Of a DNA stretch of 64,000 nt, positions 1-42,124 are shown piece after piece. The stretch covers positions 7,895-71,894 of the forward strand of contig CAJKFS010000001.1 in assembly GCA_905199225.1 (NCBI GenBank), given 5' to 3'. Numbering within the stretch: the first letter of the stretch is position 1; the number at the start of each line of letters is the position of its first letter. The notes below the pieces were generated by a model that was not told the origin of the DNA, searched no databases, and worked only from the letters and a program-made list of their open reading frames with translations. The DNA comes from an uncultured Collinsella sp. (GTDB lineage Bacteria; Actinomycetota; Coriobacteriia; Coriobacteriales; Coriobacteriaceae). The translations under genes were made by a program, and so were the position numbers.

Positions 1-60
1 GTATGACCTTCCGCATGCCGGCCTCCCATCATTTGTGATGCTGTTTTTGTGATGGGCGAG

Positions 61-105
61 GAGCACACCCTACACCATCTCATAGAGATGGTGTAGGGTG
101 TGCTC
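61..105. repeat. Perfect inverted repeat (hairpin): GAGCACACCCTACACCATCTC - ATA - GAGATGGTGTAGGGTGTGCTC, a 21-bp stem with a 3-nt loop
   Basis: Read directly from the sequence; the two arms are exact reverse complements. The right arm is also the start of the duplicated element (copy A). Confidence 0.9.
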
Positions 106-190
106 CTGTAATACAAAAGTTCTTTGAGGGCTTTAGGGCGATGCTTTCAGTTGGGGAGCGTTGTCTTTTTTGAGTGTAATGTCTGACATA
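85..190 (+). repeat. Copy A of a ~105-bp duplicated intergenic element, located ~220 bp upstream of the Abi_2 gene
   Basis: Aligns at ~80% identity with 5190-5300 in the same orientation (GAGATGGTGTAG...CAATACAAAAG...GCTTTA.GGGCGA.GCTTTC...TTTTTT...TGTAATGT). Confidence 0.8.
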
Positions 191-410
191 TTTCCCAAGT
201 GTTGTTTCATTTGCTTGATAGACAAGGGTGTCTGAATTTGGGTTTTATGGTTTGCTGCTCGACTCAAATATTTAACGTTGATTTTTGGATCGATAATCAG
301 TAGACTATCTGAACAGCGGTATTGACGCGGATAACCTACGGGTCCCGCGTCCTGCAGAAAGGCGGCTGTCCTTCTTGGGATGGCTGCCTTTCTTCATTTG
401 AGGAGCCTCA

Positions 411-1352
411 ATGACAGCAAAGCCTTTCTTGCCCATTGACGATCAAGTCAGATTGCTTAAGCAAAGGGGTTTGACTGTTGACGACAACACGGCTCGCATT
501 CTGATGAGCGAGGGTTATTACTCGATTGTTAACGGCTATAAGGATCCGTTTATTGATATGAGCTTAAGCTCGAAGTTCAATGAGGACCGGTATCGCAGCG
601 GCGCAACCTTTTCGGACCTATATTCATTGTTTACGTTCGATAGGGAGTTGAGGTCTCTAACATTTAAGTTTCTCATATTAGCCGAGGCCAAAATAAAGAC
701 CGCGATCGCGTACACCTTTTCGAATGTTCATCGTGGTCCCAATGACTATTACTTGCAGTCTTCATTTTGTACTCAAGACGAATATTCTGCGACGGGAAAA
801 GACGAGGCGAGATACGCCCGTGAGATTTCCAATCTGACGAGCATACTTAGCCGCAGGGCATTAAAAAGTAAATCTGAATTTGTTGCTCACTATCGCAATG
901 AATATGGTTCGGTGCCGCTGTGGGTTCTGGTTAATGATTTGACGTTTGGAAACATGGAGCATTTCTACAATCTGATGAAGCCCGGCGAGCGGCGTACTTT
1001 TTGCAAAATGATTGTAGATGCAACTGGGAAAACCGGATCGAAGAAAAGCGGTTTCTTTAGCGAAAAGGCCGCTCAACTTTCAATTGAAACACTCGTTAAA
1101 TTCCGTAACGTTTGCGCCCATGACGAGCGTCTTTATTGTGCTATGGTCGGAGGGCGCAAGAACATTAACTACATCCAGATGGTGTGGATGCTCAAACGTT
1201 ATCTGACCGAGATTGAATTCAGAACGTTTGTCGAAGAGTTGACGGCTCTGCTGAGTAGGTATTTGAAAACCTACGCGATAAAGCACATACTCGACCAAAT
1301 TGGATTTGTTGAGCTGCTTCAAAAGTCACAAGATGCCACCCTGTTCGATTGA
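411..1352 (+). CDS. Abi_2 family (AbiD/AbiF-like) abortive-infection protein
   Basis: The N-terminus KPFLPIDDQVRLLKQRGLTVDD...GYYSIVNGYKDPF matches the conserved Abi_2 N-terminal signature. Local GC is low (~45-48%). The ATG at 411 is preceded by GAGGAG. Confidence 0.85.
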   Translation: MTAKPFLPIDDQVRLLKQRGLTVDDNTARILMSEGYYSIVNGYKDPFIDMSLSSKFNEDRYRSGATFSDLYSLFTFDRELRSLTFKFLILAEAKIKTAIAYTFSNVHRGPNDYYLQSSFCTQDEYSATGKDEARYAREISNLTSILSRRALKSKSEFVAHYRNEYGSVPLWVLVNDLTFGNMEHFYNLMKPGERRTFCKMIVDATGKTGSKKSGFFSEKAAQLSIETLVKFRNVCAHDERLYCAMVGGRKNINYIQMVWMLKRYLTEIEFRTFVEELTALLSRYLKTYAIKHILDQIGFVELLQKSQDATLFD

Positions 1353-1594
1353 GGCTGAGGGCGTCGATACGGTTGAGTTGTCCTGCAATTGATATCCAAA
1401 TGATTGCACGACAATCTCTATCGAGTATCCAACTTTGCAGAATTATGAGCTGTGGTCAATGAGATGGTCGATGAGTTCGACGGTGGAGTGGTCACTATCT
1501 TTTACATTGAAGCCTAAGGCGATGGACATGCTTTAGATGGGACCGTTCTCACGTGCTGCTGGTTCATGAAGAGTTTTAGACAATTAGAATTAGT

Positions 1595-3421
1595 TTGGAC
1601 ATGGCTTATTTATCAAGGGGGCTGGCAAGAATGCGTCGCAATATCTTTCTGGGTTTTGGTTGTAGCGGCTATCGCTCCTTTTTCGGAAGTGAAGACTCGC
1701 GCTTCGGTCCATTTGATAAAGTCCAAGTCCTAGCGGGACAGAATAACTGCGGAAAATCGTCTCTTGTTGATTTTGTTATTAAGGCAATGACATCCATTGA
1801 CCAAAGAGGGGAAATCGCCCGCAATCGCTATCCCTTCACTAGGGAAGATGCGCCCTTGCTGCTGAAATCAGCGGGGGCAAATGACCCGTTGACTATTTCC
1901 CTGTGTATAGATCGATCTGTTTTATTGGAGTCCTCCAGTTTAAAGCGACCTTCTGGAGATAAGCGGATGGCAGAGCTTTCTGAGTTATTTTCCCGTCCGC
2001 CGTATATATCAAACGATGGAGATGGCGTTTGGCTTGACTTTCTAACGGCGTCGCCGGCTGCTGGGTCGTCTTTAGTAAATGATCTGATTGCGTCTTTCTC
2101 GCAGTATAAAAGTGCAGGCTTGTCTATGGACCTGAATCGCTGCTCCCTTGATCCTCTCCAACACGGCGGTGATGACGAATCGTGCTATGCCGACATAATC
2201 CGCAGTATTGTCCCGTGGGGGAATATCCCTCGCTTTGTTAAGGTCGATGCAATTAGGTCGGTTGAAGACGATGATTTTCCAGATCGCGATGTCGATCTTT
2301 GCAGCGGACGCGGTCTTCCAACAGCTTTGCTTCGCTTGTTTAATCCGGAGCGTTCAAATCATGCTCGGGCAGAAGCGCGGCTGAATAAGCTGCAAGGATT
2401 CGTGCGCGATGTCATGAACGACCCCCGTGCCTCTCTGCTTGTTTCGCATGAAAGCCATGAGATATCTCTTAAGACTTCCGATGCCGATTACCTGCCGCTT
2501 GAATCTTTGGGTACGGGAGTTACGGAGCTCGTAATTCTCGCTTCGATTATTGCTTGCAACGACAACAGCATTATCTGTATTGAAGAACCCGAAATTCATC
2601 TGCACCCGGCTCTGCAGGCGAGGTTTATGAAATACCTTCTCGAGGACGATTCAAACCGATTTATCATCACTACGCATTCTCCAACTGTTATTAACTATCC
2701 TGGCGTTCAGGTTGCCCATGTGTCTAAGACAAATGGAGTTTCTGGATGCAGACAGCTTGACGGTCTGGGTTGTGCTCGCGATTTGCTTGATGATTTGGGG
2801 GTCAAGCCCTCCGATCTGTTGCAAGCAAACTTTGTAGTGTGGGTTGAGGGGCCCTCGGACCGCGTGTACCTGAATTATTGGATTAAGAGATGGTCTGATG
2901 AGCATAACATTTCGCTCGAAGAAGGTATTCATTACAGTGCAATGATTTACGGTGGCAAGTTGCTGAATGCACTAGATGCAAGTGCTGGCGAAGATATCCC
3001 CGCGGAGCTGATATCCCTCTTTAGAATCAATACTCATTTCTGCGTGCTGATGGATTCTGATAAGAAATCCTCTCATTCGAGACTTAATTCAACCAAGCGA
3101 CGCATTATTGACGAGTGCACACAGAACGGCGCAATGTCGTGGGTTACCTGGGGCGCAACAATTGAGAACTATGTTCCAGAAGATGTGCTTGCAGCTTCGA
3201 TTGAGAAATGTTATTCGGGTAAAAAATGGGAGCATCCCCTTGGTGACAGATTTATTTGCCCGCTGAGCTTTACGTTTAAGGGTGGGAAAACGCATCCAGA
3301 TAAAATTAGGATTGCAAGGACTGCCTGTGGGGCCGGTTTTTCTCCGTTGGGTGATGCAATGAAACGCGTGGCAGAGTTGTGCGATCTGATATGTGCGGCC
3401 AATGACGTTGAAACGCAGTAG
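1595..3421 (+). CDS. OLD-family nuclease with an N-terminal ABC/AAA_15-type ATPase and a C-terminal TOPRIM domain
   Basis: Walker A GQNNCGKSS. OLD/AAA_21-type Walker B/D-loop IICIEEPEIHLHP. TOPRIM glutamate motif VVWVEGPSDRVYL and DxD motif LMDSDKK. The 608-aa length is similar to P2 Old and GajA. Confidence 0.8.
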   Translation: MDMAYLSRGLARMRRNIFLGFGCSGYRSFFGSEDSRFGPFDKVQVLAGQNNCGKSSLVDFVIKAMTSIDQRGEIARNRYPFTREDAPLLLKSAGANDPLTISLCIDRSVLLESSSLKRPSGDKRMAELSELFSRPPYISNDGDGVWLDFLTASPAAGSSLVNDLIASFSQYKSAGLSMDLNRCSLDPLQHGGDDESCYADIIRSIVPWGNIPRFVKVDAIRSVEDDDFPDRDVDLCSGRGLPTALLRLFNPERSNHARAEARLNKLQGFVRDVMNDPRASLLVSHESHEISLKTSDADYLPLESLGTGVTELVILASIIACNDNSIICIEEPEIHLHPALQARFMKYLLEDDSNRFIITTHSPTVINYPGVQVAHVSKTNGVSGCRQLDGLGCARDLLDDLGVKPSDLLQANFVVWVEGPSDRVYLNYWIKRWSDEHNISLEEGIHYSAMIYGGKLLNALDASAGEDIPAELISLFRINTHFCVLMDSDKKSSHSRLNSTKRRIIDECTQNGAMSWVTWGATIENYVPEDVLAASIEKCYSGKKWEHPLGDRFICPLSFTFKGGKTHPDKIRIARTACGAGFSPLGDAMKRVAELCDLICAANDVETQ

Positions 3422-3447
3422 GTGAATTATCGACCTGTCAATCATGA

Positions 3448-4476
3448 TTGAGGGGTGCGGCAGCTTTGGACAATAGCGTTGCGTATGAGTTGTATCTATA
3501 CACGATTGATACTTACAAGAGACTTGCCAGCACGCTTCCACTTGATGAGAGGCTTGCCCGTTTCGATCCTAATTGCTTTTCGAAATTAGGTGAACTTGAG
3601 CTTGGGGATGAAGCGTTTGCTGCGGTCTCGGTGCGTCTTATGCTGCAGCGCAAGTATTTTGTGCGCGGAAAGGACTTGTTTCTCAGGAGGCTGCTCAAGT
3701 CTGCTGAACGGGACTTCGCTTCTAGTAAGGATGTGATTGAATCCTTGCTGGATAGTCTTGATGCCCTTAATAGCCAATCAATTGAGTTTGCCTTTGGGGA
3801 CGGCAAGGTTGTCGAGGGTGCCTTTGCAAACGTCGAAGATGTAATGTACGGAGTGCTGATGCACGCGGATATAACGCGGGCAGAGAACCTCGTCTCTGTT
3901 CCCGAACACATGAGACTGGTCGCCCTGGCACCGTATATCGCGGGGAGAGAACAGATTTTGCTGCAGTTCTCTGAGTTCCTTCTTAATGCTGGAATCAAGC
4001 CGCTATCGAGGAAAGAGGAAGCATCGGCAACTGTTTCGTTTGAATCAAAAGACGCTTGTCGCCAGATTGAGAATTCGCCATTTTGGCGAAATCTTCGCGG
4101 TAGAGATCTTGGGGATGAGGACATTGAGAAAAAGGTTCAGCAAGGTTCGCGCGATGATTTAGAGATAATCACCGCTGTTCTACTATTCAAAGAGGCGCTT
4201 GGCAGAAGGCCCCTGGACCCCAGCGAACTCAATTCCCTTGTCGCACGGGAGACCATTTTCAGATGGGGTGATTATTTGCAAGCCGCCGAGCTTTTGGAAG
4301 GGGATTATGGAATGAGCACTCTTGTTCGGTATCAAGAGGACGGCTCGGCCCTCGTAAAGCTTCTCCCAAACGTTCGAGAACCGTTTCTGATTGAGGGACC
4401 GCAGCTCATCGAGGGCGGGCATGAAATAGTTCTGGTGAAGCGGAACGGCATTTGGAAGATATGGGCTATGAGGTGA
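3448..4476 (+). CDS. Hypothetical protein of 342 aa with no recognisable motifs, co-oriented 26 bp downstream of the OLD-family gene
   Basis: Long ORF on the same strand with a TTG start. Codon usage and GC resemble the upstream OLD gene. I could recognise no catalytic motif. Confidence 0.55.
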   Translation: MRGAAALDNSVAYELYLYTIDTYKRLASTLPLDERLARFDPNCFSKLGELELGDEAFAAVSVRLMLQRKYFVRGKDLFLRRLLKSAERDFASSKDVIESLLDSLDALNSQSIEFAFGDGKVVEGAFANVEDVMYGVLMHADITRAENLVSVPEHMRLVALAPYIAGREQILLQFSEFLLNAGIKPLSRKEEASATVSFESKDACRQIENSPFWRNLRGRDLGDEDIEKKVQQGSRDDLEIITAVLLFKEALGRRPLDPSELNSLVARETIFRWGDYLQAAELLEGDYGMSTLVRYQEDGSALVKLLPNVREPFLIEGPQLIEGGHEIVLVKRNGIWKIWAMR

Positions 4477-4699
4477 CTCTTTTCATCTAGTTTGGACGGC
4501 CTTTTATCCATTGGCGGGCGACGTATCACTTCTTTTGCAATTTAACAGCCACATAGCGAGTACGGCCACGCCCAGTCATATGATTCCCGGCGCTAAATAG
4601 CAAATCACTGACGTGGGCGCATGGACCGCGTCTTCGAGAGTCGCAACAGTTGACGAGGAATCGTCGCGTAGGGATATAAAGAATCTGGTGAGTGCGTTA

Positions 4700-5135
4700 G
4701 CCAGAGATGGCTTTACCGGGTTGCCGATGGTGGAGCCGGGCGCTGGAAAAGTTCTTTGTCTTGTGACGATATGTTAAGATCGATACCGTTCAGTTCCCGG
4801 ATCCGCGGGTCGGTGTAGTTGGCGTTGTAGATTGTCGTGTGCACGTCTTCAACAAAGCGGCTTCGCCTGTTTTCGGTTTCTTGATGGCATGGAAGCTCAT
4901 CTTTTCTTGTTCCCCCAGGTCTCTTAAATTGCCTCGTCGAGAAGTTCTACAAAGAGCCTACTGTGACTTGCCAACTCATACACTGCAGTATAGCTTGCGC
5001 CCGCTTTCGCCTCGTGCCAGGCAAGCGGATCGTAGTAGGCGAGAACATTCAATACTGGAAGAAGGCATTGATATGGGAAGTGCCGTGCCTTTTTGCCACC
5101 AAAATGCCCACCGTGCTTAATGGCGTAATTCATAA
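4700..5135 (-). pseudogene. Probable decayed gene remnant in frameshifted fragments
   Basis: Two minus-strand protein-like fragments in different frames (...AYYDPLAWHEAKAGASYTAVYELASHSRLFVELLDEAI, then ...RFVEDVHTTIYNANYTDPRIRELNGIDLNISSQDKELFQRP). No intact ORF longer than 100 aa exists across 4480-5440. Confidence 0.3.
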
Positions 5136-5189
5136 GATTTGTTATGGTCTCGGCCGGCTAGTTACGGGCTGATTTCCTCAATCAAGGGG

Positions 5190-5300
5190 AGATGGTGTAG
5201 AGTATTTTCCTACAATACAAAAGCTCTTCGGGAGCTTTAAGGGCGACGCTTTCTGTTAGAGAGTGTTGCCCTTTTTTCATGCATGTAATGTGCGACGTGC
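5190..5300 (+). repeat. Copy B of the ~105-bp duplicated intergenic element, located ~145 bp upstream of the AbiL-like ATPase gene
   Basis: Same alignment as copy A. It lacks the left hairpin arm that copy A has. Confidence 0.8.
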
Positions 5301-5443
5301 TTGCTAAACGCCATTCCGGCAATGGGATGGTCGAGTGTGGGCGGTTTGCACCTTGCGCCTGCTGTCATTGGTGTAGCAAGCACTTGATTTAGCCTACTTA
5401 AAGTCTATAATCAAAGAAAAACTCTGATATACCTTTTAAAACA

Positions 5444-6682
5444 ATGAAAAGAATGTTGAGTACCATGCTTTGCCAGTTCACCTTCAGGAACTATAGATCC
5501 TATCGCGACGAGACCGAGCTTTCCATGCAGGCAACATCGATGAGGGAGTTCGAGCGTTCCCTCATAGAGTGCCCTGACGGGCAGAATTTCCTTCCGGTAG
5601 CTGCGGTGTACGGGCCTAACGCTGGCGGCAAGTCTAACCTGCTCGAAGCTCTTGACTATATTCGTTCGGCGGTGGCAAGGCCGATCAGATTGTTGTCTGC
5701 CAGCACTGATGTGCCAGAAGGTAACCGCTCTTCGATACCCCGTTGCTCTGCGTTCGAGTTCGATGACGTGTCGGCTGCTAAGCCCACCGAGTTCGAGCTC
5801 TACTATCGCGCAGGTGAGCATGAGTACCGCTATGCCCTGTCCGTGCATGCGGACGAGATTGTGTCCGAAGGACTGTGGCGGCGCAAATTGGGGGCGTCAC
5901 GCACAGCGATGCTGTTCGAGCGCGAGGGCACAGGGGTTGAGCTTGGTCCCACTCTGCGTAAGCTTGTCACGGCTGCGAGATTCAACCCGAGCCTGCCGTA
6001 CCTGTCGTTTCTCTGCATCAACTTTGACGCGCCGGTGGTCAAGGAGGCTGCCAGCTGGTTTCTTGACGGGGTGTTCCTGAACTATAACAGCTCCTATCTG
6101 GAGCAGATGCTCGAACAATTGCTCGACGAGGATGACTCACCCGAGGTCACGCGTTTTTTGTGCGCCGTTGATGTGCGTATTGATGGCTTCAGAGTGGAGA
6201 GGGCGCCGGAGTGGCGCGGCCAGCGCGTCTTCGTGAGGCACGAGGTGGGCGACAAGGCGTACGAGCTGCGTTTATCCGAGGAATCTGCCGGAACCCAGAA
6301 GCTCATGGGGTTGGCTGCGTATCTGATGACAGCGCTTGAGCGTGGTGGCACCGTTGTGGTAGACGAGCTCGACGCCAAACTGCACCCGAAGCTTCTTCGC
6401 TATGTGATTCTGCTGTTTAAGGATCCTGAGGTCAACAAGAGTGGCGCGCAGCTCATCTTCTCGTCCCAGGATGTGTCAACCATGCGAAACGATGTGTTCC
6501 GCCGTGACGAGATATGGTTCGCTGCGCGCGGCGAGGGGGAGGCGAGCCAACTGTGGTCTCTCGCCGACATCCACGAGGCAAACGGTAATCTGGTAAGCAA
6601 GAACGCGGCTCTCGACAAGCAATACCTGTCTGGTCGCTACGGCGCCGATCCGTATCTCACCCGCATCGAAGAGTGGGATTAG
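5444..6682 (+). CDS. AbiLi-like AAA_21/AAA_15 ATPase (ATP-binding partner of an RloB-type protein)
   Basis: Walker A YGPNAGGKSN. Walker B/D-loop VVVDELDAKLHPKL. The stop codon lies 1 nt before the start of the RloB-like gene. Confidence 0.8.
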   Translation: MKRMLSTMLCQFTFRNYRSYRDETELSMQATSMREFERSLIECPDGQNFLPVAAVYGPNAGGKSNLLEALDYIRSAVARPIRLLSASTDVPEGNRSSIPRCSAFEFDDVSAAKPTEFELYYRAGEHEYRYALSVHADEIVSEGLWRRKLGASRTAMLFEREGTGVELGPTLRKLVTAARFNPSLPYLSFLCINFDAPVVKEAASWFLDGVFLNYNSSYLEQMLEQLLDEDDSPEVTRFLCAVDVRIDGFRVERAPEWRGQRVFVRHEVGDKAYELRLSEESAGTQKLMGLAAYLMTALERGGTVVVDELDAKLHPKLLRYVILLFKDPEVNKSGAQLIFSSQDVSTMRNDVFRRDEIWFAARGEGEASQLWSLADIHEANGNLVSKNAALDKQYLSGRYGADPYLTRIEEWD

Positions 6683-6683
6683 C

Positions 6684-7304
6684 ATGCTGGCGAAGAAGTC
6701 GAAGGGCTGGCGTAGCGGCAAGCGCGAGGGCAAGGAGACCGAGCCTCGCTACTTTGAGGGTGTGCGTGCGGCGTTGGGCGCGGCGAACGAGCGTAAGGTT
6801 GCCATTGTCGTTAAGGGGACCGGCAAACACACGCTTGACCTACTTGACTTCGCCGTCGAACACTGCCGCTATGCGCCCGAGACATTCGACCATGTGTGGC
6901 TCGTGTATGACAAGGATGACTTTCCTGCGTCCGACTTTGACGCGATGGAGCGCAAATGCAACGAGCTCTCCGACGGTTCGAGGACCTTCCATGCGTTGTG
7001 GTCGAACCCCTGCTTCGAGCTGTGGCCGCTTCTGCACTTTCGCTACACGACCGCGCATATGTCCGCGTCCGACTGCCAGCATGTCCTCGCGCAGGAGATG
7101 TCGAGAGACCTGGGCATCGAGTACCGCAAGAACTTGGACGGGCTGTTCGAGGTGGTGGACGGCAAACGAGGCGAGGCATTGCAGCGTGTTGGGCGCCTCG
7201 TCACATACCATAGGGGGCTGGGTAACGTTAAGCCATCTGCGCAAAACCCTGCAACCAAGGTGGGCGAAATTTTCGATGTAATCGGGCCGTATCTGGTTGG
7301 CTAG
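6684..7304 (+). CDS. RloB-like / AbiLii-like protein (divergent TOPRIM)
   Basis: N-terminal GKETEPRYFEG motif, a central WLVYDKDDF motif, and SNPCFELWPLLHF. These are the characteristic RloB-family motifs. This frame is chosen over the overlapping frame at 6673. Confidence 0.85.
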   Translation: MLAKKSKGWRSGKREGKETEPRYFEGVRAALGAANERKVAIVVKGTGKHTLDLLDFAVEHCRYAPETFDHVWLVYDKDDFPASDFDAMERKCNELSDGSRTFHALWSNPCFELWPLLHFRYTTAHMSASDCQHVLAQEMSRDLGIEYRKNLDGLFEVVDGKRGEALQRVGRLVTYHRGLGNVKPSAQNPATKVGEIFDVIGPYLVG

Positions 7305-7650
7305 TCGAGTCTGTGGATTGGCTTTCCGGTTAGGGCGATTGGCGGATTATGATGCGCGATTGCAAATCCGGTGCGTAGGAGAAGTGCGGAGAAAAATCGA
7401 AACTCGCCGAGCATAGCCCGATTTCAGGCAACAAAACCGCAGGTCGCGGGTGCCCAAAACTAGGGTCTGGTCGACAGGTCTCGGTTTTTCACCCCACTTC
7501 CGAATTGGTCGCTCATTTAGCACTCTTGATGTCCCCACATCCTCTAAAAAAGTTCTTAAAACAGCCTTAAAGGCGTTCCAACTCGCGTTGACAGCGTAAA
7601 ATACGCATGTTTGACTATGACAGAAGTGGATTTTAGGGGAGGAGTACGCC

Positions 7651-9789
7651 ATGGAGGTGCTGGTTGTTGGCAACACCGCATATGTTGACGATGACTTTTG
7701 TGCCAAGGCGTTCCCCGGGGACCACGTTAAGGTCGTCGCTGCCGCGGAAGCGCGCCGCGACGAGTCGTCGCCCCATGCCTCGTGGAAAGAGCTCCTCCAG
7801 CACCTGGATCAGGCCTACGAGTTCGACCGCGTGGTTTACCTGTCTAATTACCTTACCCCGCATACCGATTCCGTGGGCGATATCGAGCTGCTGCGCTCGG
7901 TCTTTCGTACGTGCGCGGGTCGCCGGGTCCAACTGCTGTATGTAGCGGGGCCCGCGGGTGCCGAGGGTGCCGCCGATGCCGCGGGGCGAACGGGCAAGGG
8001 CATTATCGCGCACGCAGCCAACGACCTGTGCCGCTACTACGCTGCTCGCGAGGGCGTTCAGACCAAGATCCTGCGCGTGCCGTTCCTCTATACCGCGTCT
8101 GCCGCGCTGGAGGACCCGTTTTTGGTGCCGATGTTCGACGCATGCTCAACCGGATCGGCCGCTCTGCAGGGCGCGCAGGATGCGGCGTTTCCCCTGCTGT
8201 GTGCCGAGGAGCTTTCGGTGCTGGTACGCCGTATCTTCGACAGCTGGAATGCTAACTTTGAGACGCTCGACGTAGTCGATACCTTCCATCACACGGTGGG
8301 TGAGGTGGGCGACGCCCTCAAGGCGCTGTTCCCAGGGCTCTCAGTTGCCTATGGCGATTCTGCCGGCTACGCCCTGCCCGCCAGCGACGTCGCTCGCGTG
8401 CGCTATGGCTGGTTTCAGCGCTACGACTTGCTGCGCGACCTCTCGACCATTCAGGCTCGCTGGGATGCTGGCCGTGCAAAGAAGGTCAACCCCTTGCGCG
8501 CGGCCATCGACCGCATTCAAATGCGCACGCTGCCTGTCAAATGCCTGGAGACGGCAGCCGCCTGGGTGCTCTTTGAAGTGCTGGAGCGCTTGTTCTCCCA
8601 ATCGACCCAGCTCAACGTGCTCGATTATCGCCTGCTCTACGTGGTGCTGATCGGCACGCTGTATGGCTTGGACTTTGGCCTGGTTGCGGCGCTGCTGGCG
8701 TCGGTGGGTTTGGCTGCGAGTTACTTTACTCTGTACGGCTATACCTTCCAGGGCCTGTTCTACGAGCCGTCCAACTGGCTGCCGTTTATTGCGTACTTTG
8801 TTGTGGGTGCCGTGTGCGGCTATGTGCAGCTGCGCAACAGCGAAGCCATTAGGGCGGAGCGCGATCAAAACGAGCTCGTGCGCAACCGCAATACGTTCCT
8901 TACGCAGCTCTATCACGACGCGATCGAGGACAAGCGTGCGTACAGGCGCCAGATCGTGGGTCGCCACGACAGCTTTGGCAAGATCTTTGCCGTGACGCAG
9001 GAGCTCGACGTGCTCAACCCACGCGACATCTATCGCAAGTGCTGCGAGCTTCTGGGCGAGATCCTCGAGAACGATTCGGTGGCGATCTACCATGTTTCGG
9101 GCGGGGCATTTGCACGCCTGGTGGCGGCAAGTCCCGCGATTGCCGAAGATGCCGCACGTTCGCTCACGCTTGAGCAGCTTGCACCTCTTTTGAGCGACGG
9201 GGGTCGTTCGAACCTGTGGGTGAACCGCGAACTGATGCCGGGGCTTCCCATGTTTTGTTATACGATCGAGCGCGATGGGGCACCCGCCGTGTTGATCTTT
9301 GTGCGTCGCGCGGCCGAAAACCAAATGACCCTCTATTACCAAAACCTGTTCCGCATCTTGTGTGGCCTGGTCGAAAGCGCGCTGGGCCGTGCCTTTGACT
9401 ATGAGGCGGTGGCACAGGATAAACGCTGCGTTGACGGCACTTGCGTGCTCAAGCAGGCTGCCTTTGGCCAAGAGCTCGCGGCCGAGCAGGCGCTGGCAGA
9501 TGGCAAGATGGGGAGTTTTTTGCTCCTGCGCGTGGTACCAGGCATGGAGCCTATCGGCGAGCTGGTGGGCGCGATTGGGTCGGCGATCCGCGAGAGCGAT
9601 GCGGCGGGCCTGATCGACGGCGACGTGCTCTACCTGCTTATGCGCCAGGCAAAGGCATGCGATCTGCCCATTATCCGCGAGCGCCTGAGCGAAAAGCAGA
9701 TTGAGGTGGAGCCCGTCGACGGCGAGGATATCGTGGCGCTGTTGCAGCACATCTCTTACACCGGTGACGGTGAGGGGGGTGCCGCTTGA
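7651..9789 (+). CDS. pelD: PelD-like c-di-GMP receptor: N-terminal degenerate SDR/epimerase-like domain, transmembrane helices, and a GAF / degenerate-GGDEF C-terminus
   Basis: RESD(x5)DGDVL gives an intact I-site RxxD five residues before a degenerate GG(D/E)EF position. Hydrophobic helices occur near residues 330-400. The N-terminus (VLVVGN..., ...RVPFLYTAS) looks like a Rossmann/epimerase fold without GxxGxxG. It is the first gene of an operon containing pelF and pelG. The ATG is preceded by GGGGAGGAG. Confidence 0.6.
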   Translation: MEVLVVGNTAYVDDDFCAKAFPGDHVKVVAAAEARRDESSPHASWKELLQHLDQAYEFDRVVYLSNYLTPHTDSVGDIELLRSVFRTCAGRRVQLLYVAGPAGAEGAADAAGRTGKGIIAHAANDLCRYYAAREGVQTKILRVPFLYTASAALEDPFLVPMFDACSTGSAALQGAQDAAFPLLCAEELSVLVRRIFDSWNANFETLDVVDTFHHTVGEVGDALKALFPGLSVAYGDSAGYALPASDVARVRYGWFQRYDLLRDLSTIQARWDAGRAKKVNPLRAAIDRIQMRTLPVKCLETAAAWVLFEVLERLFSQSTQLNVLDYRLLYVVLIGTLYGLDFGLVAALLASVGLAASYFTLYGYTFQGLFYEPSNWLPFIAYFVVGAVCGYVQLRNSEAIRAERDQNELVRNRNTFLTQLYHDAIEDKRAYRRQIVGRHDSFGKIFAVTQELDVLNPRDIYRKCCELLGEILENDSVAIYHVSGGAFARLVAASPAIAEDAARSLTLEQLAPLLSDGGRSNLWVNRELMPGLPMFCYTIERDGAPAVLIFVRRAAENQMTLYYQNLFRILCGLVESALGRAFDYEAVAQDKRCVDGTCVLKQAAFGQELAAEQALADGKMGSFLLLRVVPGMEPIGELVGAIGSAIRESDAAGLIDGDVLYLLMRQAKACDLPIIRERLSEKQIEVEPVDGEDIVALLQHISYTGDGEGGAA

Positions 9790-10691
9790 TCTCGCTTGTC
9801 GTTGCTGCCGTCTTGCTGCTGATTCATGCGCTGGTTTGCCTGGTGCTGTGGACGCTCATGAAGTTGGGCCTGCTGCCGGTGCGCGGGCACATGCTGCCTG
9901 TGATAGTGCTGGTGCCGCTGTGGGGCCCGTTGCTGGTGGTTCTGCTATCGGTCTGCAGCGCGGTGTTTGGCGAGGGACTGAATGAGTCTGCGCTGGAGTC
10001 GCTGCGCTTCAACGACGACCTGCATCGCAGCATCTTAGTGCACGAACGTGATGCCGATGCAGGCGTGATCCCGCTCGAGGAGGCGCTCATCGTCAACGAC
10101 CCGGCAGACCGGCGCCGCCTAATGCTCTCCATGCTCACCGAGGAGCCCGACGCGTACCTGGCGCAGCTGCAGGCGGCTAAGCTTAACGACGACGTTGAGG
10201 TGGCTCACTATGCCGCGACGGCGGTGGCGCAGATCTCCAAGGAGTCCGACCTTAAACTGCAGCAGCTGGAGCGTGCCTTTAAGACGGACCCGAGCGCGCA
10301 AAACCTCAACGAATACTGCGATTTTCTTGGTGAATACTTGGGCTCGGGCTTGGCTGAGGGGCGCGTGGCTCAGATTCAACGCCAACAGTACGCGCGCTTG
10401 CTTGCGCGTCGCTGCGAGCGCGAGGACACCCTTGAGCTTCGCATTCGATACGCGACGGCGCTGGCCGATGTCGGACAGATCGACGAGGCGCAGGCCGTGA
10501 CCGACCAGCTGGTGCTCGACGTGCCCGAGGAGCAGGAGGTTTGGATGCTTTGCCTGCGCCTGGCGGTGATGCGCCGCGACGGTGACGAGGTCCACCGCGT
10601 GATCGATGCGATTGACAAACAGCATGTATACTTGAGCGCCGCCAACCGCGAGGAACTGGCGTTTTGGCGCAACGGAGAGGAGGCCCGATGA
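9786..10691 (+). CDS. pelE: PelE-like membrane protein (N-terminal transmembrane helices plus helical/TPR-like repeats)
   Basis: A hydrophobic N-terminus with two predicted transmembrane segments is followed by an alpha-helical repeat region. Its position between pelD and pelA matches Gram-positive pel operons. The TTG start overlaps the pelD stop. Confidence 0.5.
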   Translation: MISLVVAAVLLLIHALVCLVLWTLMKLGLLPVRGHMLPVIVLVPLWGPLLVVLLSVCSAVFGEGLNESALESLRFNDDLHRSILVHERDADAGVIPLEEALIVNDPADRRRLMLSMLTEEPDAYLAQLQAAKLNDDVEVAHYAATAVAQISKESDLKLQQLERAFKTDPSAQNLNEYCDFLGEYLGSGLAEGRVAQIQRQQYARLLARRCEREDTLELRIRYATALADVGQIDEAQAVTDQLVLDVPEEQEVWMLCLRLAVMRRDGDEVHRVIDAIDKQHVYLSAANREELAFWRNGEEAR

Positions 10692-12568
10692 GCGTGGTGC
10701 AGCATATCCGCGACCGTGCGGGCCATTTTCGCTGGATGGGGCTGCTTGTGGTGTGGGCGGTCTTTATTGCCATGGCGGCCGTGCTGCTGGTGGAGCGCGC
10801 CGGCGTGCAGTACAGTGCGGGCCAGCATAAGCTGGGGATGCTTGCCGCCAACGATGCGGTGCCGGCTTCCTCCGCAATATTTGGCCAAAAGCCCACGTGC
10901 CTGGTCATTACCGATTCCGACCAAGCTGGCGTCGAGGACGTAAAGGAGCAGTTTGACCAGATCCTGCTCGACATGAAGATCGCGCACCGCGACGTGGACC
11001 TTGCCCTGGACGGCGTGGATGCCATTCCCTCGCTGACCTCCTTCGATCGCGTGATTTTGCTCATGCCGTCGCTCGATGGGCTCGGTACGCACCTGAGTGA
11101 CATTATGAGTTGGGTGAGTGCCGGTGGTTCGCTTATGCTCGCCATGCCTCCGGATAACTCGAGCTATCTGCAAGTAATTGCCCCCAAGCTTGGCATTGAA
11201 TCGGCCGGATATGACTATGTAAAAGCCGAAAGCATTGTGCCGAGCGAGGACTTTATGCTGGGCGGGGGAGAGCGCTACGAGCTCTCGGACCCCTTCGATT
11301 CGTCGCTTTCGGTTTCGCTGCGCGAGACGGCTCGTGTGTGGGCTAAGACCGGCGATGCGGGCGCCCCGCTCATTTGGTCGAATGACTGCGGTAGCGGGCG
11401 CACCGTGGTATGCAATATCGGTATCTATGACAAGGTTATGCGCGGTTTTTACGCCGCGGCGATCAGCCTGCTGGGCGATGCCACGGCCTATCCGGTCATC
11501 AACAGCGCCGTTTTCTACCTAGACGACTTTCCCAGCCCCGTGCCCTCGGGCGATGGCACCTACATCAAGCGCGACTACGGGCTTTCCATTGCCGATTTTT
11601 ACACCAAGGTTTGGTGGCCCGATCTGCAAAAGCTCGCGCAAAAATATGGCATTCGCTTTACCGGCGTGATGATCGAAAACTACGAGGACGCGGTCAACCA
11701 GACCGAGCCCGCGCGCCAGGCCGATACCACGCAGTTCCGCTACTTTGGCGGTATGCTGCTGCAGATGGGCGGAGAGCTGGGCTTTCACGGCTACAACCAT
11801 CAGCCTCTGGCGCTCTGGGATACCGACTATGGCAAGCTGTACGACTACAAGACGTGGAAGAACGAGGAAACGCTCGTCGCGTCGCTCAACGAGCTCATCG
11901 CCTTTCAGGACGAGGTGCTGCCCAACGCGCACGGCTCGGTCTATGTGCCACCGTCGAATATCCTTTCGGCCCGTGCGCGCAAGCTTATTGGCACCGACGT
12001 TCCGCGCATTAAGACCATCGCCAGTACGTATTTTGAGGATGGCACCGTCTTGCCCCATGTGCAGGAGTTTGGCGTGGCGAGCGATGGCATTGTGGAGCAG
12101 CCACGTATTGTCTCGGGCGGCATGGTCAACGATTCCTATATGCGTCTGGCAGCCGTGTCCGAGCTCAACATGCACTACGTGAGTACGCACTTTATGCACC
12201 CGGATGATCTGCTCGATCCCGATCGCGGCGCCAAGGAGGGCTGGGAGGTCTACAAGGGCGGTCTGACCAACTACCTGGAGTGGCTTACCAAGTCTGCGCC
12301 CGACCTGCGGCGCCAGACCGGTTCGGAATGCTCGGGCGCCATCCAGCGCTTTTCGTCCGTGACGGTGAGCGTGGATACAAGTGCGGATGCCTGGACGCTC
12401 AGCCTGGGCAATTTCCACGACGAGGCGTGGCTCATGTTCCGCGCCAACAACGGTGAGCCCGGTGCAGTCACGGGTGGCGAGATTACGCATCTGACGGGCG
12501 ACCTGTACCTGGTCAAAGCCACGGACAAGACGGTGACCATTGCACGCAAGGAGGGTGGCGACAAATGA
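10688..12568 (+). CDS. pelA: PelA-like polysaccharide deacetylase (CE4-like) with an N-terminal membrane anchor
   Basis: CE4-like motif 1 FYLDDFP and motif 2 HGYNHQP. An N-terminal transmembrane helix is present. ATGA start/stop coupling links it to pelE upstream and pelF downstream. Confidence 0.55.
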   Translation: MSVVQHIRDRAGHFRWMGLLVVWAVFIAMAAVLLVERAGVQYSAGQHKLGMLAANDAVPASSAIFGQKPTCLVITDSDQAGVEDVKEQFDQILLDMKIAHRDVDLALDGVDAIPSLTSFDRVILLMPSLDGLGTHLSDIMSWVSAGGSLMLAMPPDNSSYLQVIAPKLGIESAGYDYVKAESIVPSEDFMLGGGERYELSDPFDSSLSVSLRETARVWAKTGDAGAPLIWSNDCGSGRTVVCNIGIYDKVMRGFYAAAISLLGDATAYPVINSAVFYLDDFPSPVPSGDGTYIKRDYGLSIADFYTKVWWPDLQKLAQKYGIRFTGVMIENYEDAVNQTEPARQADTTQFRYFGGMLLQMGGELGFHGYNHQPLALWDTDYGKLYDYKTWKNEETLVASLNELIAFQDEVLPNAHGSVYVPPSNILSARARKLIGTDVPRIKTIASTYFEDGTVLPHVQEFGVASDGIVEQPRIVSGGMVNDSYMRLAAVSELNMHYVSTHFMHPDDLLDPDRGAKEGWEVYKGGLTNYLEWLTKSAPDLRRQTGSECSGAIQRFSSVTVSVDTSADAWTLSLGNFHDEAWLMFRANNGEPGAVTGGEITHLTGDLYLVKATDKTVTIARKEGGDK

Positions 12569-13992
12569 GAATCTGCTTGGTACTCGAGGGTTGCTACCCC
12601 TATGTGCACGGCGGCGTGTCCACCTGGATGCACGGCTACATACAGGCCATGCCCGAGCACGAGTTTGTGCTGTGGGTGATTGGCGCGCATGCTGTCGACC
12701 GCGGCAAGTTTGTCTACGAGCTGCCCGGCAACGTGGTCGAGGTGCACGAGGTGTTTCTGGACGACGCCCTGCGCCTATCGGGCGAGCAAGAAGAGGCCGA
12801 CTTTAACGCCCGCGAGCGCGAGGCGCTGCGCCGCCTGGTGTCGCTCTCCAATCCGGACTGGGACGTGCTATTCGATATCTTCCAGCGCCGTCGCGTGCAT
12901 CCGCTCTCGTTTTTGCAGAGTCGCGCCTTTATGGATATCTTTCGCGACGTGTGCCTGGCCGAGTACCCATACACGCCCTTTGCCGATGCATTCCACACCA
13001 TGCGCTCCATGCTGCTGCCCGTGCTCTACCTTCTGGGCAGCGAGGTGCCGGTGGCCGATGTGTACCACGCCATCTCGACCGGCTACGGTGGCCTGCTCGC
13101 CTGCCTGGGCTCAAGCGTTCACCATGCGCCGGTGCTGCTGACCGAGCATGGCATCTATACTCGCGAACGCGAGGAAGAGATCATTCGCGCTGACTGGGTG
13201 GTGCCGTCGTTTAAGGACCGCTGGATCCGCTTTTTCTACCTGCTTTCGGAGGAGATCTACCGTCGCGCCTTCCGCGTGACCAGTTTGTTCCATAACGCCC
13301 GCAAGACGCAGATCGATATGGGCTGCGATGCGGACAAATGCCTGGTCATCCCCAACGGCATCCAGTTCGACCGCTTTAAGGACATTCCCTTAAAGCCCGA
13401 TGACGGCTGGGTGGACATTGGCGCGGTGGTGCGCCTGGCGCCCATCAAGGACGTCAAGACCATGATCTATGCGTTCTTTGAGCTGCACGAGCGCCTGCCC
13501 AAGGTGCGCCTGCACGTTATGGGCGGCGTGGACGACGAGGAGTACGGCGCTGAGTGCCACGCGCTGGTCGATACCCTGGGCGTGCGCGACCTGATCTTTA
13601 CCGGCCGCGTCAACGTGGTCGAGTACATGGAAAAGCTCGACTTTACCATTTTGACGAGCATCTCCGAGGGCCAGCCACTCAGCGTGCTGGAGTCGCTTGC
13701 AGCGCGCCGTCCCTGCGTGACGACCGAGGTGGGCTGCTGTCGCGAGCTGCTCGAAGGCGCCCCGGGCGACGACTTTGGCGTGGCGGGTTTTGTGACGCCG
13801 CCCATGTATCGCAAGGGCTTGGCCGATGCCATGGAGCGCATGTGCGTGAGCCGCGCCCGTCGCATTGAGATGGGGGAGCGCGGGCAGCGTCGCGTTGCCA
13901 CGTACTTTTTGCACGAGCAGATGCTCGCCAACTATCGCGCGCTGTACGACGAGACGGCGTGTGCGTTTAACCTGCCCAGAGAGGGGGAGTAG
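12565..13992 (+). CDS. pelF: PelF, a GT4-family glycosyltransferase with an N-terminal DUF3492
   Basis: N-terminus MRICLVLEGCYPYVHGGVSTW matches the PelF/DUF3492 signature (CLLLEG.YPYV.GGVSSW). The C-terminus has the GT4 fold motif E..GQPLSVLES.A. Confidence 0.85.
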   Translation: MRICLVLEGCYPYVHGGVSTWMHGYIQAMPEHEFVLWVIGAHAVDRGKFVYELPGNVVEVHEVFLDDALRLSGEQEEADFNAREREALRRLVSLSNPDWDVLFDIFQRRRVHPLSFLQSRAFMDIFRDVCLAEYPYTPFADAFHTMRSMLLPVLYLLGSEVPVADVYHAISTGYGGLLACLGSSVHHAPVLLTEHGIYTREREEEIIRADWVVPSFKDRWIRFFYLLSEEIYRRAFRVTSLFHNARKTQIDMGCDADKCLVIPNGIQFDRFKDIPLKPDDGWVDIGAVVRLAPIKDVKTMIYAFFELHERLPKVRLHVMGGVDDEEYGAECHALVDTLGVRDLIFTGRVNVVEYMEKLDFTILTSISEGQPLSVLESLAARRPCVTTEVGCCRELLEGAPGDDFGVAGFVTPPMYRKGLADAMERMCVSRARRIEMGERGQRRVATYFLHEQMLANYRALYDETACAFNLPREGE

Positions 13993-13995
13993 CCG

Positions 13996-42049: not shown

Positions 42050-42124
42050 TCCTCGGTAGCTCAATGGTAGAGCACGCGGCTGTTAACCGCGCTGTTGTAG
42101 GTTCGAGTCCTACCCGGGGAGCCA
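42050..42124 (+). tRNA. tRNA-Asn (anticodon GTT)
   Basis: Cloverleaf: acceptor stem TCCTCGG/CCGGGGA, anticodon loop CTGTTAA, T-arm GGTTCGAGTCC, encoded CCA. Confidence 0.9.

Follow-up and report, generated by a model that had tools for sequence, protein, structure and literature searches.

The window, by which we mean the whole 64,000-nucleotide stretch of DNA from a human-gut Collinsella analysed here, carries a gene for an ABC ATPase followed immediately, on the same strand, by a gene for an RloB-domain protein. The two lie on the margin of a defence island of low GC content (an AbiD gene and an OLD-like gene) and beside a pel-type polysaccharide operon, and the features of the locus are the following:

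411..1352, + strand: neighbouring AbiD/Abi_2 gene (Pfam Abi_2, 133.9 bits; PADLOC AbiD, 1.5e-44)
1595..3421, + strand: neighbouring gene for a single-chain OLD-like ABC ATPase-nuclease (Pfam AAA_21/AAA_15)
5239..5283, + strand: putative terminator, a hairpin with a 16-pair stem (7 G-C pairs) and a T-run (TTTTT tail)
5375..7310, + strand: AbiL-type cassette, made up of a promoter-like site and the two genes, with boundaries from blastn; a unit common to Collinsella genomes
5384..5411, + strand: candidate sigma-70-like promoter (TTGATT, 16 nt, TATAAT; 10/12 matches)
5444..6682, + strand: AbiLi-type ABC ATPase gene (AAA_21/AAA_15, from Pfam and PADLOC; longest ORF 412 aa)
5612..5635, + strand: Walker A, GPNAGGKS, invariant in alignment A2
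6284..6301, + strand: ABC signature-like motif SAGTQK (E-S-A-G-T-x-K invariant in A2)
6353..6388, + strand: Walker B and D-loop, VVVDELDAKLHP (DELD.KLHP invariant in A2)
6458..6472, + strand: H-loop position, FSSQD
6680..6686, + strand: stop-start junction TAG-c-ATG, with probable translational coupling
6684..7304, + strand: RloB/AbiLii-type effector gene, deletion allele (206 aa, against 222 aa in homologues)
6719..6730, + strand: deletion scar, with the junction between 6724 and 6725 inside the retained CGAGGG copy (DNA and protein alignments A1 and A5)
6726..6755, + strand: retained catalytic-Glu motif EGKETEPRYF (E, G, T, E and Y invariant across six phyla)
6909..6920, + strand: retained DKDD (DxD-type) motif, after strand β3
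7002..7040, + strand: RloB family motif SNPCFELWPLLHF (aa 107-119; S, F, E, W, L and H invariant in A5)

Translation of the ATPase gene more probably begins at Met8 (nt 5465; MLCQFTF..., 405 aa), because this is the start used by nearly all homologues and chosen by gene callers. The predicted protein matches Pfam AAA_21 (PF13304) and PADLOC AbiLi (PDLC02335; 7.4e-83, 276 bits), has 6750 homologues at E <=1e-3 and is full length and free of indels when compared with homologues in A2. The motifs quoted for it in a first-pass annotation of this DNA, YGPNAGGKSN as Walker A (aa 56-65, nt 5609-5638) and DELDAKLHP as D-loop (aa 307-315, nt 6362-6388; Walker B VVVDE plus D-loop), are present in that form. 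Histidine is usual at the H-loop of ABC ATPases, and glutamine stands there in this AbiLi-type ATPase; since S-Q-D does not vary anywhere in family alignment A2, we regard the glutamine as a family trait and not as a lesion. The second protein matches Pfam RloB (PF13707) and PADLOC AbiLii (PDLC02337; 5e-17), covering only positions 6-192 of the Pfam profile, whereas intact homologues cover 2-192 at ~115 bits, and is already represented in NCBI by an exact match (WP_117736265.1, "RloB domain-containing protein"). Its three reported hallmarks could all be located: GKETEPRYF at aa 16-24, VYDKDDF at aa 74-80, and SNPCFELWPLLHF, in which S, E, W and H are also invariant in alignment A6. Neither protein reaches any family cut-off in NCBIfam.

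The ATPase stop codon (6680-6682) and the RloB start codon (6684) are separated by a single nucleotide (...GAT TAG c ATG CTG...), which bears out the tight coupling originally noted. This architecture can be observed directly well beyond Collinsella: the order of ATPase then RloB is kept in six distant lineages, the best matches of each of the two proteins fall on the same replicons, and the genes abut or overlap (-17 to +1 nt) in Clostridium, Psychrobacter, Rhodococcus, E. coli, Fibrella plasmids and a Klebsiella phage. When positions 4000-8500 of the window were compared by blastn with 170 related loci, homology started at 5370-5379 in 91 loci and stopped at 7290-7319 in 89, and the flanks vary, the pel operon adjoining the cassette in only 33 of 76 genome representatives. 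The candidate promoter sits just within the conserved left edge but is weak evidence by itself, because chance alone would give 1.7 such sites in the region scanned, where two were found, and the terminator-like hairpin, just outside the cassette, would close the upstream unit. Further upstream, the OLD module said to lie next door is represented by the gene at 1595..3421, which matches the PADLOC GajA, AriA, PtuA and ATPase-Toprim models, carries the motifs VVWVEGPSD and VLMDSDKK, and has PDB sequence matches to AriA, GajA, PtuA and Thermus OLD. The ORFs in the gap of ~970 bp at 4477-5443 are all short and have no Pfam match. A search of positions 1-16000 against Rfam (E <=0.1) returned nothing.

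By the operational definition of PADLOC and Pfam, a sequence-level one, the pair is AbiL: an AbiLi-profile ATPase gene is followed by an AbiLii/RloB-profile gene, adjacent, co-directional and tightly coupled. The first-pass annotation had proposed this assignment and named sub-threshold profile scores, or membership of a different two-gene family, as grounds for giving it up; the scores are 94.2 bits against a cut-off of 27 for AAA_21 and 105.5 bits against a cut-off of 31.5 for RloB, and AbiLi/AbiLii are the best PADLOC models. Like the AbiL operon of Lactococcus lactis plasmid pND861, the Collinsella pair consists of an ABC ATPase gene (AAA_15/21) followed by a gene for a small RloB-type nuclease; it differs in being chromosomal and actinobacterial, and in the window copy the effector lacks strand β1 of its catalytic core (see below). 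The link to the lactococcal prototype runs through the names of the PADLOC models. The plasmid searches, whose output names only part of the organism groups, show no Lactococcus among the groups named or the rows listed. With the Campylobacter RloA/RloB proteins, the founders of PF13707, the pair shares an RloB domain well above the Pfam threshold and, judging from an RloA annotation on one plasmid match, the type of ATPase partner, but those genes reside within type I restriction-modification (R-M) loci, whereas the Collinsella pair stands by itself as a cassette in a defence island.

That the pair belongs instead to another family that couples an ABC ATPase to an effector (PARIS AriAB, Menshen, Septu or type I R-M RloAB) is hardly credible, even though the ATPase also matches the PADLOC AriA (3.2e-27), HEC-01A, PDC-M07A and PtuA models and RloB domains are known both from type I R-M loci of Campylobacter and as effectors in Menshen NsnC. 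The AbiLi model is ahead of these by >50 orders of magnitude, on which ground Septu was dropped, and the effector matches only AbiLii/RloB, with no DUF4435, HNH or inPIN domain. PARIS was ruled out because the AriA matches are partial and far weaker than AbiLi and no DUF4435/AriB match was found. Menshen comprises three genes, NsnA (ParB-DUF262), NsnB (ABC ATPase plus DUF3696) and NsnC (inPIN plus effector); it was excluded since neither ParB-DUF262 nor DUF3696 was found in the neighbouring proteins scanned, inPIN is missing from the effector, and the sharp two-gene boundaries speak against a third linked partner gene, whether NsnA-like or hsd. A type I R-M RloAB locus was rejected because the Pfam scan of ORFs between 411 and 9789 gave no match to hsd-type families (methylase, specificity or restriction subunit); between 7651 and 15540 the genes are of pel type.

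The pair is thus an ordinary example of AbiL, a known family of anti-phage modules in which two genes encode a sensor ATPase and an RloB nuclease, and such cassettes are not rare in Coriobacteriia. The ~1.9-kb cassette, with 94-100% ATPase identity, is present in at least 80 Collinsella/Coriobacteriaceae species-representative genomes (out of 234 matching stretches), and Olsenella and Enorma carry more distant copies. The original impression of rarity accordingly does not hold for the presence of AbiL in this class, although it stands with respect to characterised examples. To our knowledge, a phage phenotype for AbiL has been shown solely in lactococcal work from 1999, and our literature search found no mechanistic paper on AbiL/RloB. 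AbiL is among the least studied of the defence systems that combine an ABC ATPase with a Toprim protein. A clade as widespread and well conserved as this one, in an actinobacterium dominant in the gut, is therefore a reasonable source of protein for mechanistic work.

The literature places AbiL among the ABC-plus-Toprim defence systems, and RloB has been described as a Toprim member with the sheet order β2-β1-β3-β4, the catalytic Glu after β1 and the DxD motif after β3 (PMC12065111). A first AlphaFold run on a shallow alignment of 34 sequences gave an unusable model (pLDDT 58) and was replaced by a rerun with 149 diverse sequences. In the model of P0001, an intact homologue and not the window allele (pLDDT 89.5), strands span residues 24-30, 55-61, 86-92 and 117-124, E31 immediately follows β1, and D92-K-D94-D95 lies at the end of β3, so that both the three-layer α/β fold with its Toprim layout and the published topology are matched. 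Searches for independent support gave no Toprim match with Foldseek against the PDB (best E 0.013), no significant hhalign match between the RloB family and a C-terminal profile of 100 representatives of the window's OLD family (E 0.24-0.36), and no solved structure when the RloB profile was run against PDB sequences. As the Foldseek and hhalign comparisons did not recover Toprim, the identification of β1 as the central Toprim strand rests on the topology of the model together with the literature.

By analogy with PARIS, P2 OLD and validated AAA-plus-Toprim toxin-antitoxin pairs, an oligomer of the ATPase in intact AbiL cassettes would keep the RloB nuclease inactive, a phage-derived trigger would free or activate it, and the freed nuclease would cut nucleic acid, most likely tRNA, and so abort the infection (PMC11464382; PMC12409363; PMC10440598; PMC13064643; bioRxiv 10.64898/2026.07.10.737580). 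PARIS is the best template for such a mechanism: there too a sensor ATPase (AriA) and a Toprim effector (the DUF4435 tRNase AriB) are split between two proteins, and the ATPase hexamer sequesters the nuclease until a phage protein triggers its release and tRNA is cleaved. The pair differs from PARIS in having RloB in place of DUF4435. In the AAA-plus-TOPRIM_OLD pairs from Clostridium algidicarnis and Streptococcus agalactiae that were validated in the NetFlax study, the ATPase neutralises an adjacent toxic Toprim-type partner, and the same paper ties this node to RloB and AbiLii; those effectors are annotated as TOPRIM_OLD and the Collinsella one as RloB. Single-chain OLD nucleases such as P2 Old, recently reported to be an abortive tRNase, GajA and the window's own OLD-like protein encoded at 1595..3421 share with the pair the class of ABC ATPase and the placement of the Glu after β1 and the DxD after β3, but fuse the domains that are split here.

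The window RloB departs from this family pattern in one respect. It is 16 residues shorter than every homologue owing to an internal, clean 48-bp in-frame deletion flanked by the direct repeat CGAGGG, as seen in a DNA alignment with locus L009, and the residues lost, EGRSRMVQMTRHLVVS, take in the entire strand β1 that precedes the catalytic Glu; in the P0001 model the strand at 24-30 lies wholly within the deleted segment. Each of the six distant family members aligned in A5 has a hydrophobic strand before the E-G dipeptide, as does every one of the 149 rows of A6, where L27, I28, E31 and G32 are each conserved at >=90%. The distribution of the deletion can be read directly from the genomes: it is shared by only 1 of 77 other Collinsella species genomes that retain the region, and is thus a derived state, and it recurs on at least 1000 contigs and in the genome of isolate OM06-18AC, so that the allele is real. 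A functional AbiL effector would be expected to have the complete catalytic fold (β1, the Glu, and the DxD after β3); the window RloB keeps the catalytic residues and lacks the strand. Because the deletion takes out β1, the central strand that positions the catalytic Glu, the protein encoded in the window is, judging from the model, probably misfolded or inactive. That the hallmark motifs signal an intact effector, as was at first assumed, does not hold for this copy.

We consider it unlikely, though far from negligible, that the pair is nevertheless a fully functional AbiL whose shortened RloB still folds, for instance because the position of β1 is taken by its basic N-terminal tail or by the partner ATPase. 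The frame is open, the E-G-x-x-T-E, DKDD and SNPCFELW..H motifs are kept, the Pfam score is still high as given above, and RloB has acquired no lineage-specific amino-acid change (0 nonsynonymous, 1 synonymous) and no further lesion. An open ORF with its catalytic residues and without added lesions fits either retained function or a deletion that happened very recently, and the pairwise dN/dS values for RloB in the closest comparisons rest on 8-11 substitutions, too few for detecting relaxed selection. The identical protein is found on the many contigs mentioned above, from many cohorts, and is the most frequently sampled sequence of its cluster, but the same sequence on many contigs is also what recent clonal expansion would produce and does not by itself show selection. 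Against a functional effector, the ~350 homologues examined individually all retain β1, save for the deletion-sharing genome(s), and the residues that now precede the Glu, WRSGKR, are polar and basic and hence could not stand in for a strand buried at the centre of the sheet.

The ATPase of the deletion lineage also speaks against full function. It has accumulated 5 nonsynonymous and 3 synonymous lineage-specific changes, and all 3 of its 3 polymorphisms within the lineage are nonsynonymous, L216P among them, whereas the background pairwise ω is only ~0.04-0.12; at ω <=0.12, at least 8 nonsynonymous changes among 11 would arise with P <=0.002. This ratio of 8 to 3 suggests decay, with the qualification that the signal of relaxed constraint consists of 11 substitutions and that polymorphism is normally rich in nonsynonymous changes. 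Taking the evidence as a whole, the account that we favour, with some reserve, is a disarmed and decaying chromosomal AbiL module in which the function of RloB has presumably been lost and the ATPase is intact but under relaxed constraint. In 11 further species genomes RloB is broken independently, the gene carrying stops or frameshifts or being lost.

That the ATPase has outlived its effector because it serves a separate function, as an anti-addiction factor against incoming homologous RloB toxins or as the partner of another nuclease of the island, appears very unlikely to us; the RloB remnant would then be irrelevant. What speaks for this reading is that the ATPase is intact in the window, that loci L026 and L039 have no RloB gene and a full-length ATPase directly upstream of the pel operon, and that 80 genome representatives chosen by ATPase similarity contain 12 RloB lesions against 1 ATPase lesion. 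Yet among loci chosen by RloB similarity, 7 of 72 have a lesion in the ATPase and an intact RloB, and the nonsynonymous excess in the deletion lineage speaks against strong retained constraint. We also considered the asymmetry of 12 to 1 as a sign that RloB is the toxin and dropped it, since it is confounded by ascertainment, as the RloB-chosen sample (several of its lesions on low-coverage contigs) indicates. Returning to the module that we take to be disarmed, it is a distinctly unlikely extension that the deletion represents a naturally disarmed effector allele, risen to dominance in a Collinsella lineage that is among the most prevalent in the human gut, with the sensor ATPase kept. If true, this would point to selection against AbiL self-toxicity (e.g. 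triggered by a resident prophage) or to an effector-independent role of AbiLi-type ATPases, for example immunity against incoming AbiL cassettes.

The heterologous expression against phages suggested in the first-pass annotation is a poor use of the window copy, because its RloB lacks β1, and for the same reason an intact allele, e.g. that of C. aerofaciens ATCC 25986 (L049), is preferable for such tests, with the window allele serving as a natural loss-of-function control. The locus also shows how a gene with a crippled structure can get through both motif spotting and HMM thresholds: even with the deletion, the allele scores 105 bits against RloB.

The pair is a known kind of system, an AbiL/RloAB-type ABC ATPase together with an RloB nuclease, encoded by two open reading frames that lie where the first-pass annotation had placed them:

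5444-6682, + strand, ATPase ORF, 412 aa
6684-7304, + strand, RloB ORF, 206 aa

One nucleotide separates the ATPase stop from the RloB start (junction GAT TAG c ATG) and all the motifs quoted earlier were recovered in place, while the ATPase start was corrected to Met8 (5465, MLCQFTF..., 405 aa), as in homologues and gene callers. Pfam scored the ATPase at 94.2 bits for AAA_21 (cut-off 27) and slightly below cut-off for AAA_15, and the window RloB protein at 105.5 bits for the RloB domain (cut-off 31.5). PADLOC assigned the two proteins to the AbiLi model PDLC02335 (7.4e-83) and the AbiLii model PDLC02337 (5e-17), with AriA the second-best model for the ATPase, trailing AbiLi by over 50 orders of magnitude; NCBIfam yielded no model for either. 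Because the Pfam and PADLOC scores are well over threshold, the AbiL-type identification was correct, and neither sub-threshold RloB or AAA_21 domains nor a different two-gene family accounts for the pair. The ATPase contains a complete set of ABC motifs; at the H-loop position (6458-6472), where His is usual, Gln (T/S-S-Q-D) is invariant in the aligned AbiLi-type ATPases (alignment A2), which marks it as a trait of the family. This Gln could reflect slow or regulated ATP hydrolysis in AbiLi-type ATPases.

Protein and DNA alignments revealed a 48-bp in-frame deletion in RloB that the first-pass annotation had missed. Close RloB homologues are all 222 aa long, and the window protein aligns with them end to end, minus 16 internal residues (EGRSRMVQMTRHLVVS); in the DNA the deletion is clean and flanked by a CGAGGG direct repeat, a hallmark of loss by slippage or microhomology. 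The Pfam RloB profile is matched from 2 to 192 by intact homologues (~115 bits) and from 6 to 192 by the window protein (105.5 bits). In an alignment covering six phyla, a hydrophobic strand (LIVxEG, YIYCEG, LVVSEG) directly precedes the invariant Glu-Gly in every member except the window RloB, and its positions are at least 90% conserved in a 149-sequence alignment; since the strand is kept across six phyla, the missing residues do not form a variable linker. AlphaFold performed poorly with a shallow alignment (pLDDT 58), and modelling of the intact 222-aa homologue P0001 with 149 diverse sequences gave a pLDDT of 89.5 and a pTM of 0.84, with strands at 24-30, 55-61, 86-92 and 117-124, E31 directly after β1, and D92-K-D94-D95 closing β3. 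PMC12065111 describes RloB as a Toprim-superfamily domain with the sheet order β2-β1-β3-β4, which makes β1 a central strand, and in which β1 is followed by the catalytic Glu and β3 by DxD. In the model the deletion corresponds to P0001 residues 15-30 and removes the whole of β1, and polar residues (WRSGKR) now precede the Glu. With β1 lost and this polar segment in its place, we infer that the window effector is misfolded or inactive, and the window copy is probably disarmed through the loss of β1. RloB proteins of distant phyla share a basic N-terminal tail before β1 (KKxxGWRSGxR-like; protein alignments A1 and A5), predicted to be disordered (pLDDT <50), that could be a contact site for the ATPase or for nucleic acid.

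The deletion allele is real: the identical 206-aa protein occurs in 2039 indexed blocks of public assemblies, the allele is found in eight long contigs from different cohorts in the window-like order PIN_12, Abi_2, OLD, pair, pel, and it is also present in an isolate genome. The region is kept in 77 of 80 species representatives, and because only one of these (L014, whose ATPase is 100% identical to that of the window) carries the deletion, the comparison identifies the allele as derived. Purifying selection acts on both genes throughout the Collinsella complex (pairwise ω of 0.04-0.12 for the ATPase and, where substitutions suffice, 0.06-0.26 for RloB). In the lineage sharing the deletion, the ATPase has acquired five nonsynonymous (S41N, A83V, R233C, G263D, F383L) and three synonymous lineage-specific changes, and each of the three ATPase polymorphisms seen in nine loci changes an amino acid (E109K, L216P, R251S). 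Such an excess (at least 8/11 nonsynonymous; P <=0.002 at ω <=0.12) is suggestive of ATPase decay, and is graded no higher because the changes are few and polymorphism inflates nonsynonymous counts.

RloB has been damaged independently at other related loci, by stops (L016, L044, L059, L080), frameshifts or duplication (L027, L079, L088) and internal deletion (L032). In L087 (5034-7337) only its first ~61 residues remain, ahead of an inserted 666-aa gene of the winged-helix plus Mrr_cat restriction-endonuclease-like type; in L026 (1590-1829) and L039 it is wholly lost with the ATPase kept, homology to the reference cassette stopping ~5 nt into RloB, and the L026 ATPase lies ~240 nt from the pel operon. 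In the sample chosen by ATPase, 12 lesions affected RloB versus one in the ATPase. We dropped a toxin-antitoxin signature read from this 12-to-1 excess, because in the complementary RloB-chosen sample 7/72 have an ATPase lesion and an intact RloB, so the asymmetry is not robust.

The host had been described as 'Coriobacteriia-like', which holds, as Collinsella belongs to the class Coriobacteriia, but the supposed rarity of the pair there does not: it is common in Collinsella and had been annotated there before. When species-representative genomes were scanned with the ATPase, 234 stretches matched, and the best 80 are all from Collinsella/Coriobacteriaceae (94-100% identical, with C. aerofaciens ATCC 25986 among them); named homologues further off are from Olsenella uli, Enorma massiliensis and Collinsella ihumii. 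The window RloB exactly matches WP_117736265.1, 'RloB domain-containing protein [Collinsella sp. OM06-18AC]', and at least 1000 contigs carry it; 295 carry the exact 405-aa ATPase. A word-limited search showed a large RloB family, with 3138 proteins (E <=1e-5). The RloB genes of Clostridium, Psychrobacter, Rhodococcus, E. coli and Fibrella plasmids, and that of a P2-like Klebsiella phage, each directly follow a gene for a 412-453-aa ATP-binding protein, overlapping or abutting it (-17 to +1 nt). The plasmids topping the RloB matches also top the ATPase matches (27-36% identity, full length), and one partner ATPase is annotated RloA; this arrangement argues that ATPase and RloB form a conserved two-gene module. 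In the Klebsiella phage, ST13-OXA48phi12.1 (L178, 213-2199; a P2-like Peduoviridae prophage), the pair directly adjoins the genes for portal and terminase; phages thus also carry AbiL-type cassettes as cargo.

Intact cassettes would most likely work as their relatives do, namely PARIS, P2 OLD, AAA-Toprim pairs and lactococcal AbiL. In PARIS, AriB is sequestered by an AriA hexamer and freed by a phage protein, and the AriB dimer cleaves tRNA (PMC11464382, PMC12409363); a recent report describes P2 OLD as an abortive tRNase (bioRxiv 10.64898/2026.07.10.737580); AAA antitoxin/Toprim toxin pairs were validated via toxicity neutralisation (PMC10440598); and lactococcal AbiL acts after phage transcription, reviewers explicitly leaving undecided whether it works like PARIS (PMC13064643). 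The window copy is useful mainly because it points to intact Collinsella alleles on which AbiL could be studied mechanistically, beside which its own allele is a natural negative control.

The cassette and its surroundings comprise the following further features:

1595-3421, single-chain OLD-like ATPase-nuclease
3448-4476, + strand, 342-aa ORF, 27 nt past the OLD-like gene, overlapping 3513-4124 (- strand)
5239-5273, strong terminator-like hairpin closing the 4477-5443 stretch
5384-5411, promoter-like TTGATT-16-TATAAT, just downstream of the left cassette edge
7651-15540, pel-type exopolysaccharide operon, Gram-positive type, directly downstream of the cassette

When window 4000-8500 was compared with 170 related loci, homology began at 5370-5379 in 91 and ended at 7290-7319, coinciding with the RloB stop, in 89. 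The flanks are variable: the pel-type operon adjoins the cassette in 33/76 genome representatives, and upstream genes elsewhere include reverse transcriptase, Abi_alpha, UvrD fragments and other ATPases. These sharp edges and variable flanks point to a ~1.9-kb cassette, consisting of the promoter-like site and two genes, that moves or recombines among defence islands. Upstream in the window lie an AbiD/Abi_2 gene, the OLD-like gene and the 342-aa ORF, bearing out the earlier view that ATPase-nuclease systems are stacked in this island. The island (AbiD, OLD-like gene, AbiL cassette; window 1-7000) has 46-55% GC versus ~60% in the remaining window, consistent with horizontal acquisition; the sole tRNA in the window, tRNA-Asn (GTT; 42050-42124), is not an obvious integration site because it is ~35 kb away.

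The OLD-like family has 9801 representatives (E <=1e-3), and the gene is called shorter at some loci of the deletion lineage (484 aa in L005, 548 aa in L006), which may indicate lesions there too. The 342-aa ORF, without a match in Pfam, PADLOC, NCBIfam or PHROGs, could encode an uncharacterised partner for the OLD-like protein; callers differ on its strand, most loci having 203-aa and 79-aa ORFs (-) and one a 336-aa ORF (+). The ~970 bp at 4477-5443 hold no convincing gene, with short ORFs on both strands lacking a Pfam match, and could be what remains of a decayed gene, or a scar left by recombination between island modules. On related contigs the island runs on leftwards into PIN_12 and PP2C genes. 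The pel-type operon encodes a 712-aa DUF4118-like membrane protein, a 301-aa protein, a DUF2194 protein (634 aa), a PelF-like glycosyltransferase (475 aa) and PelG (514 aa).
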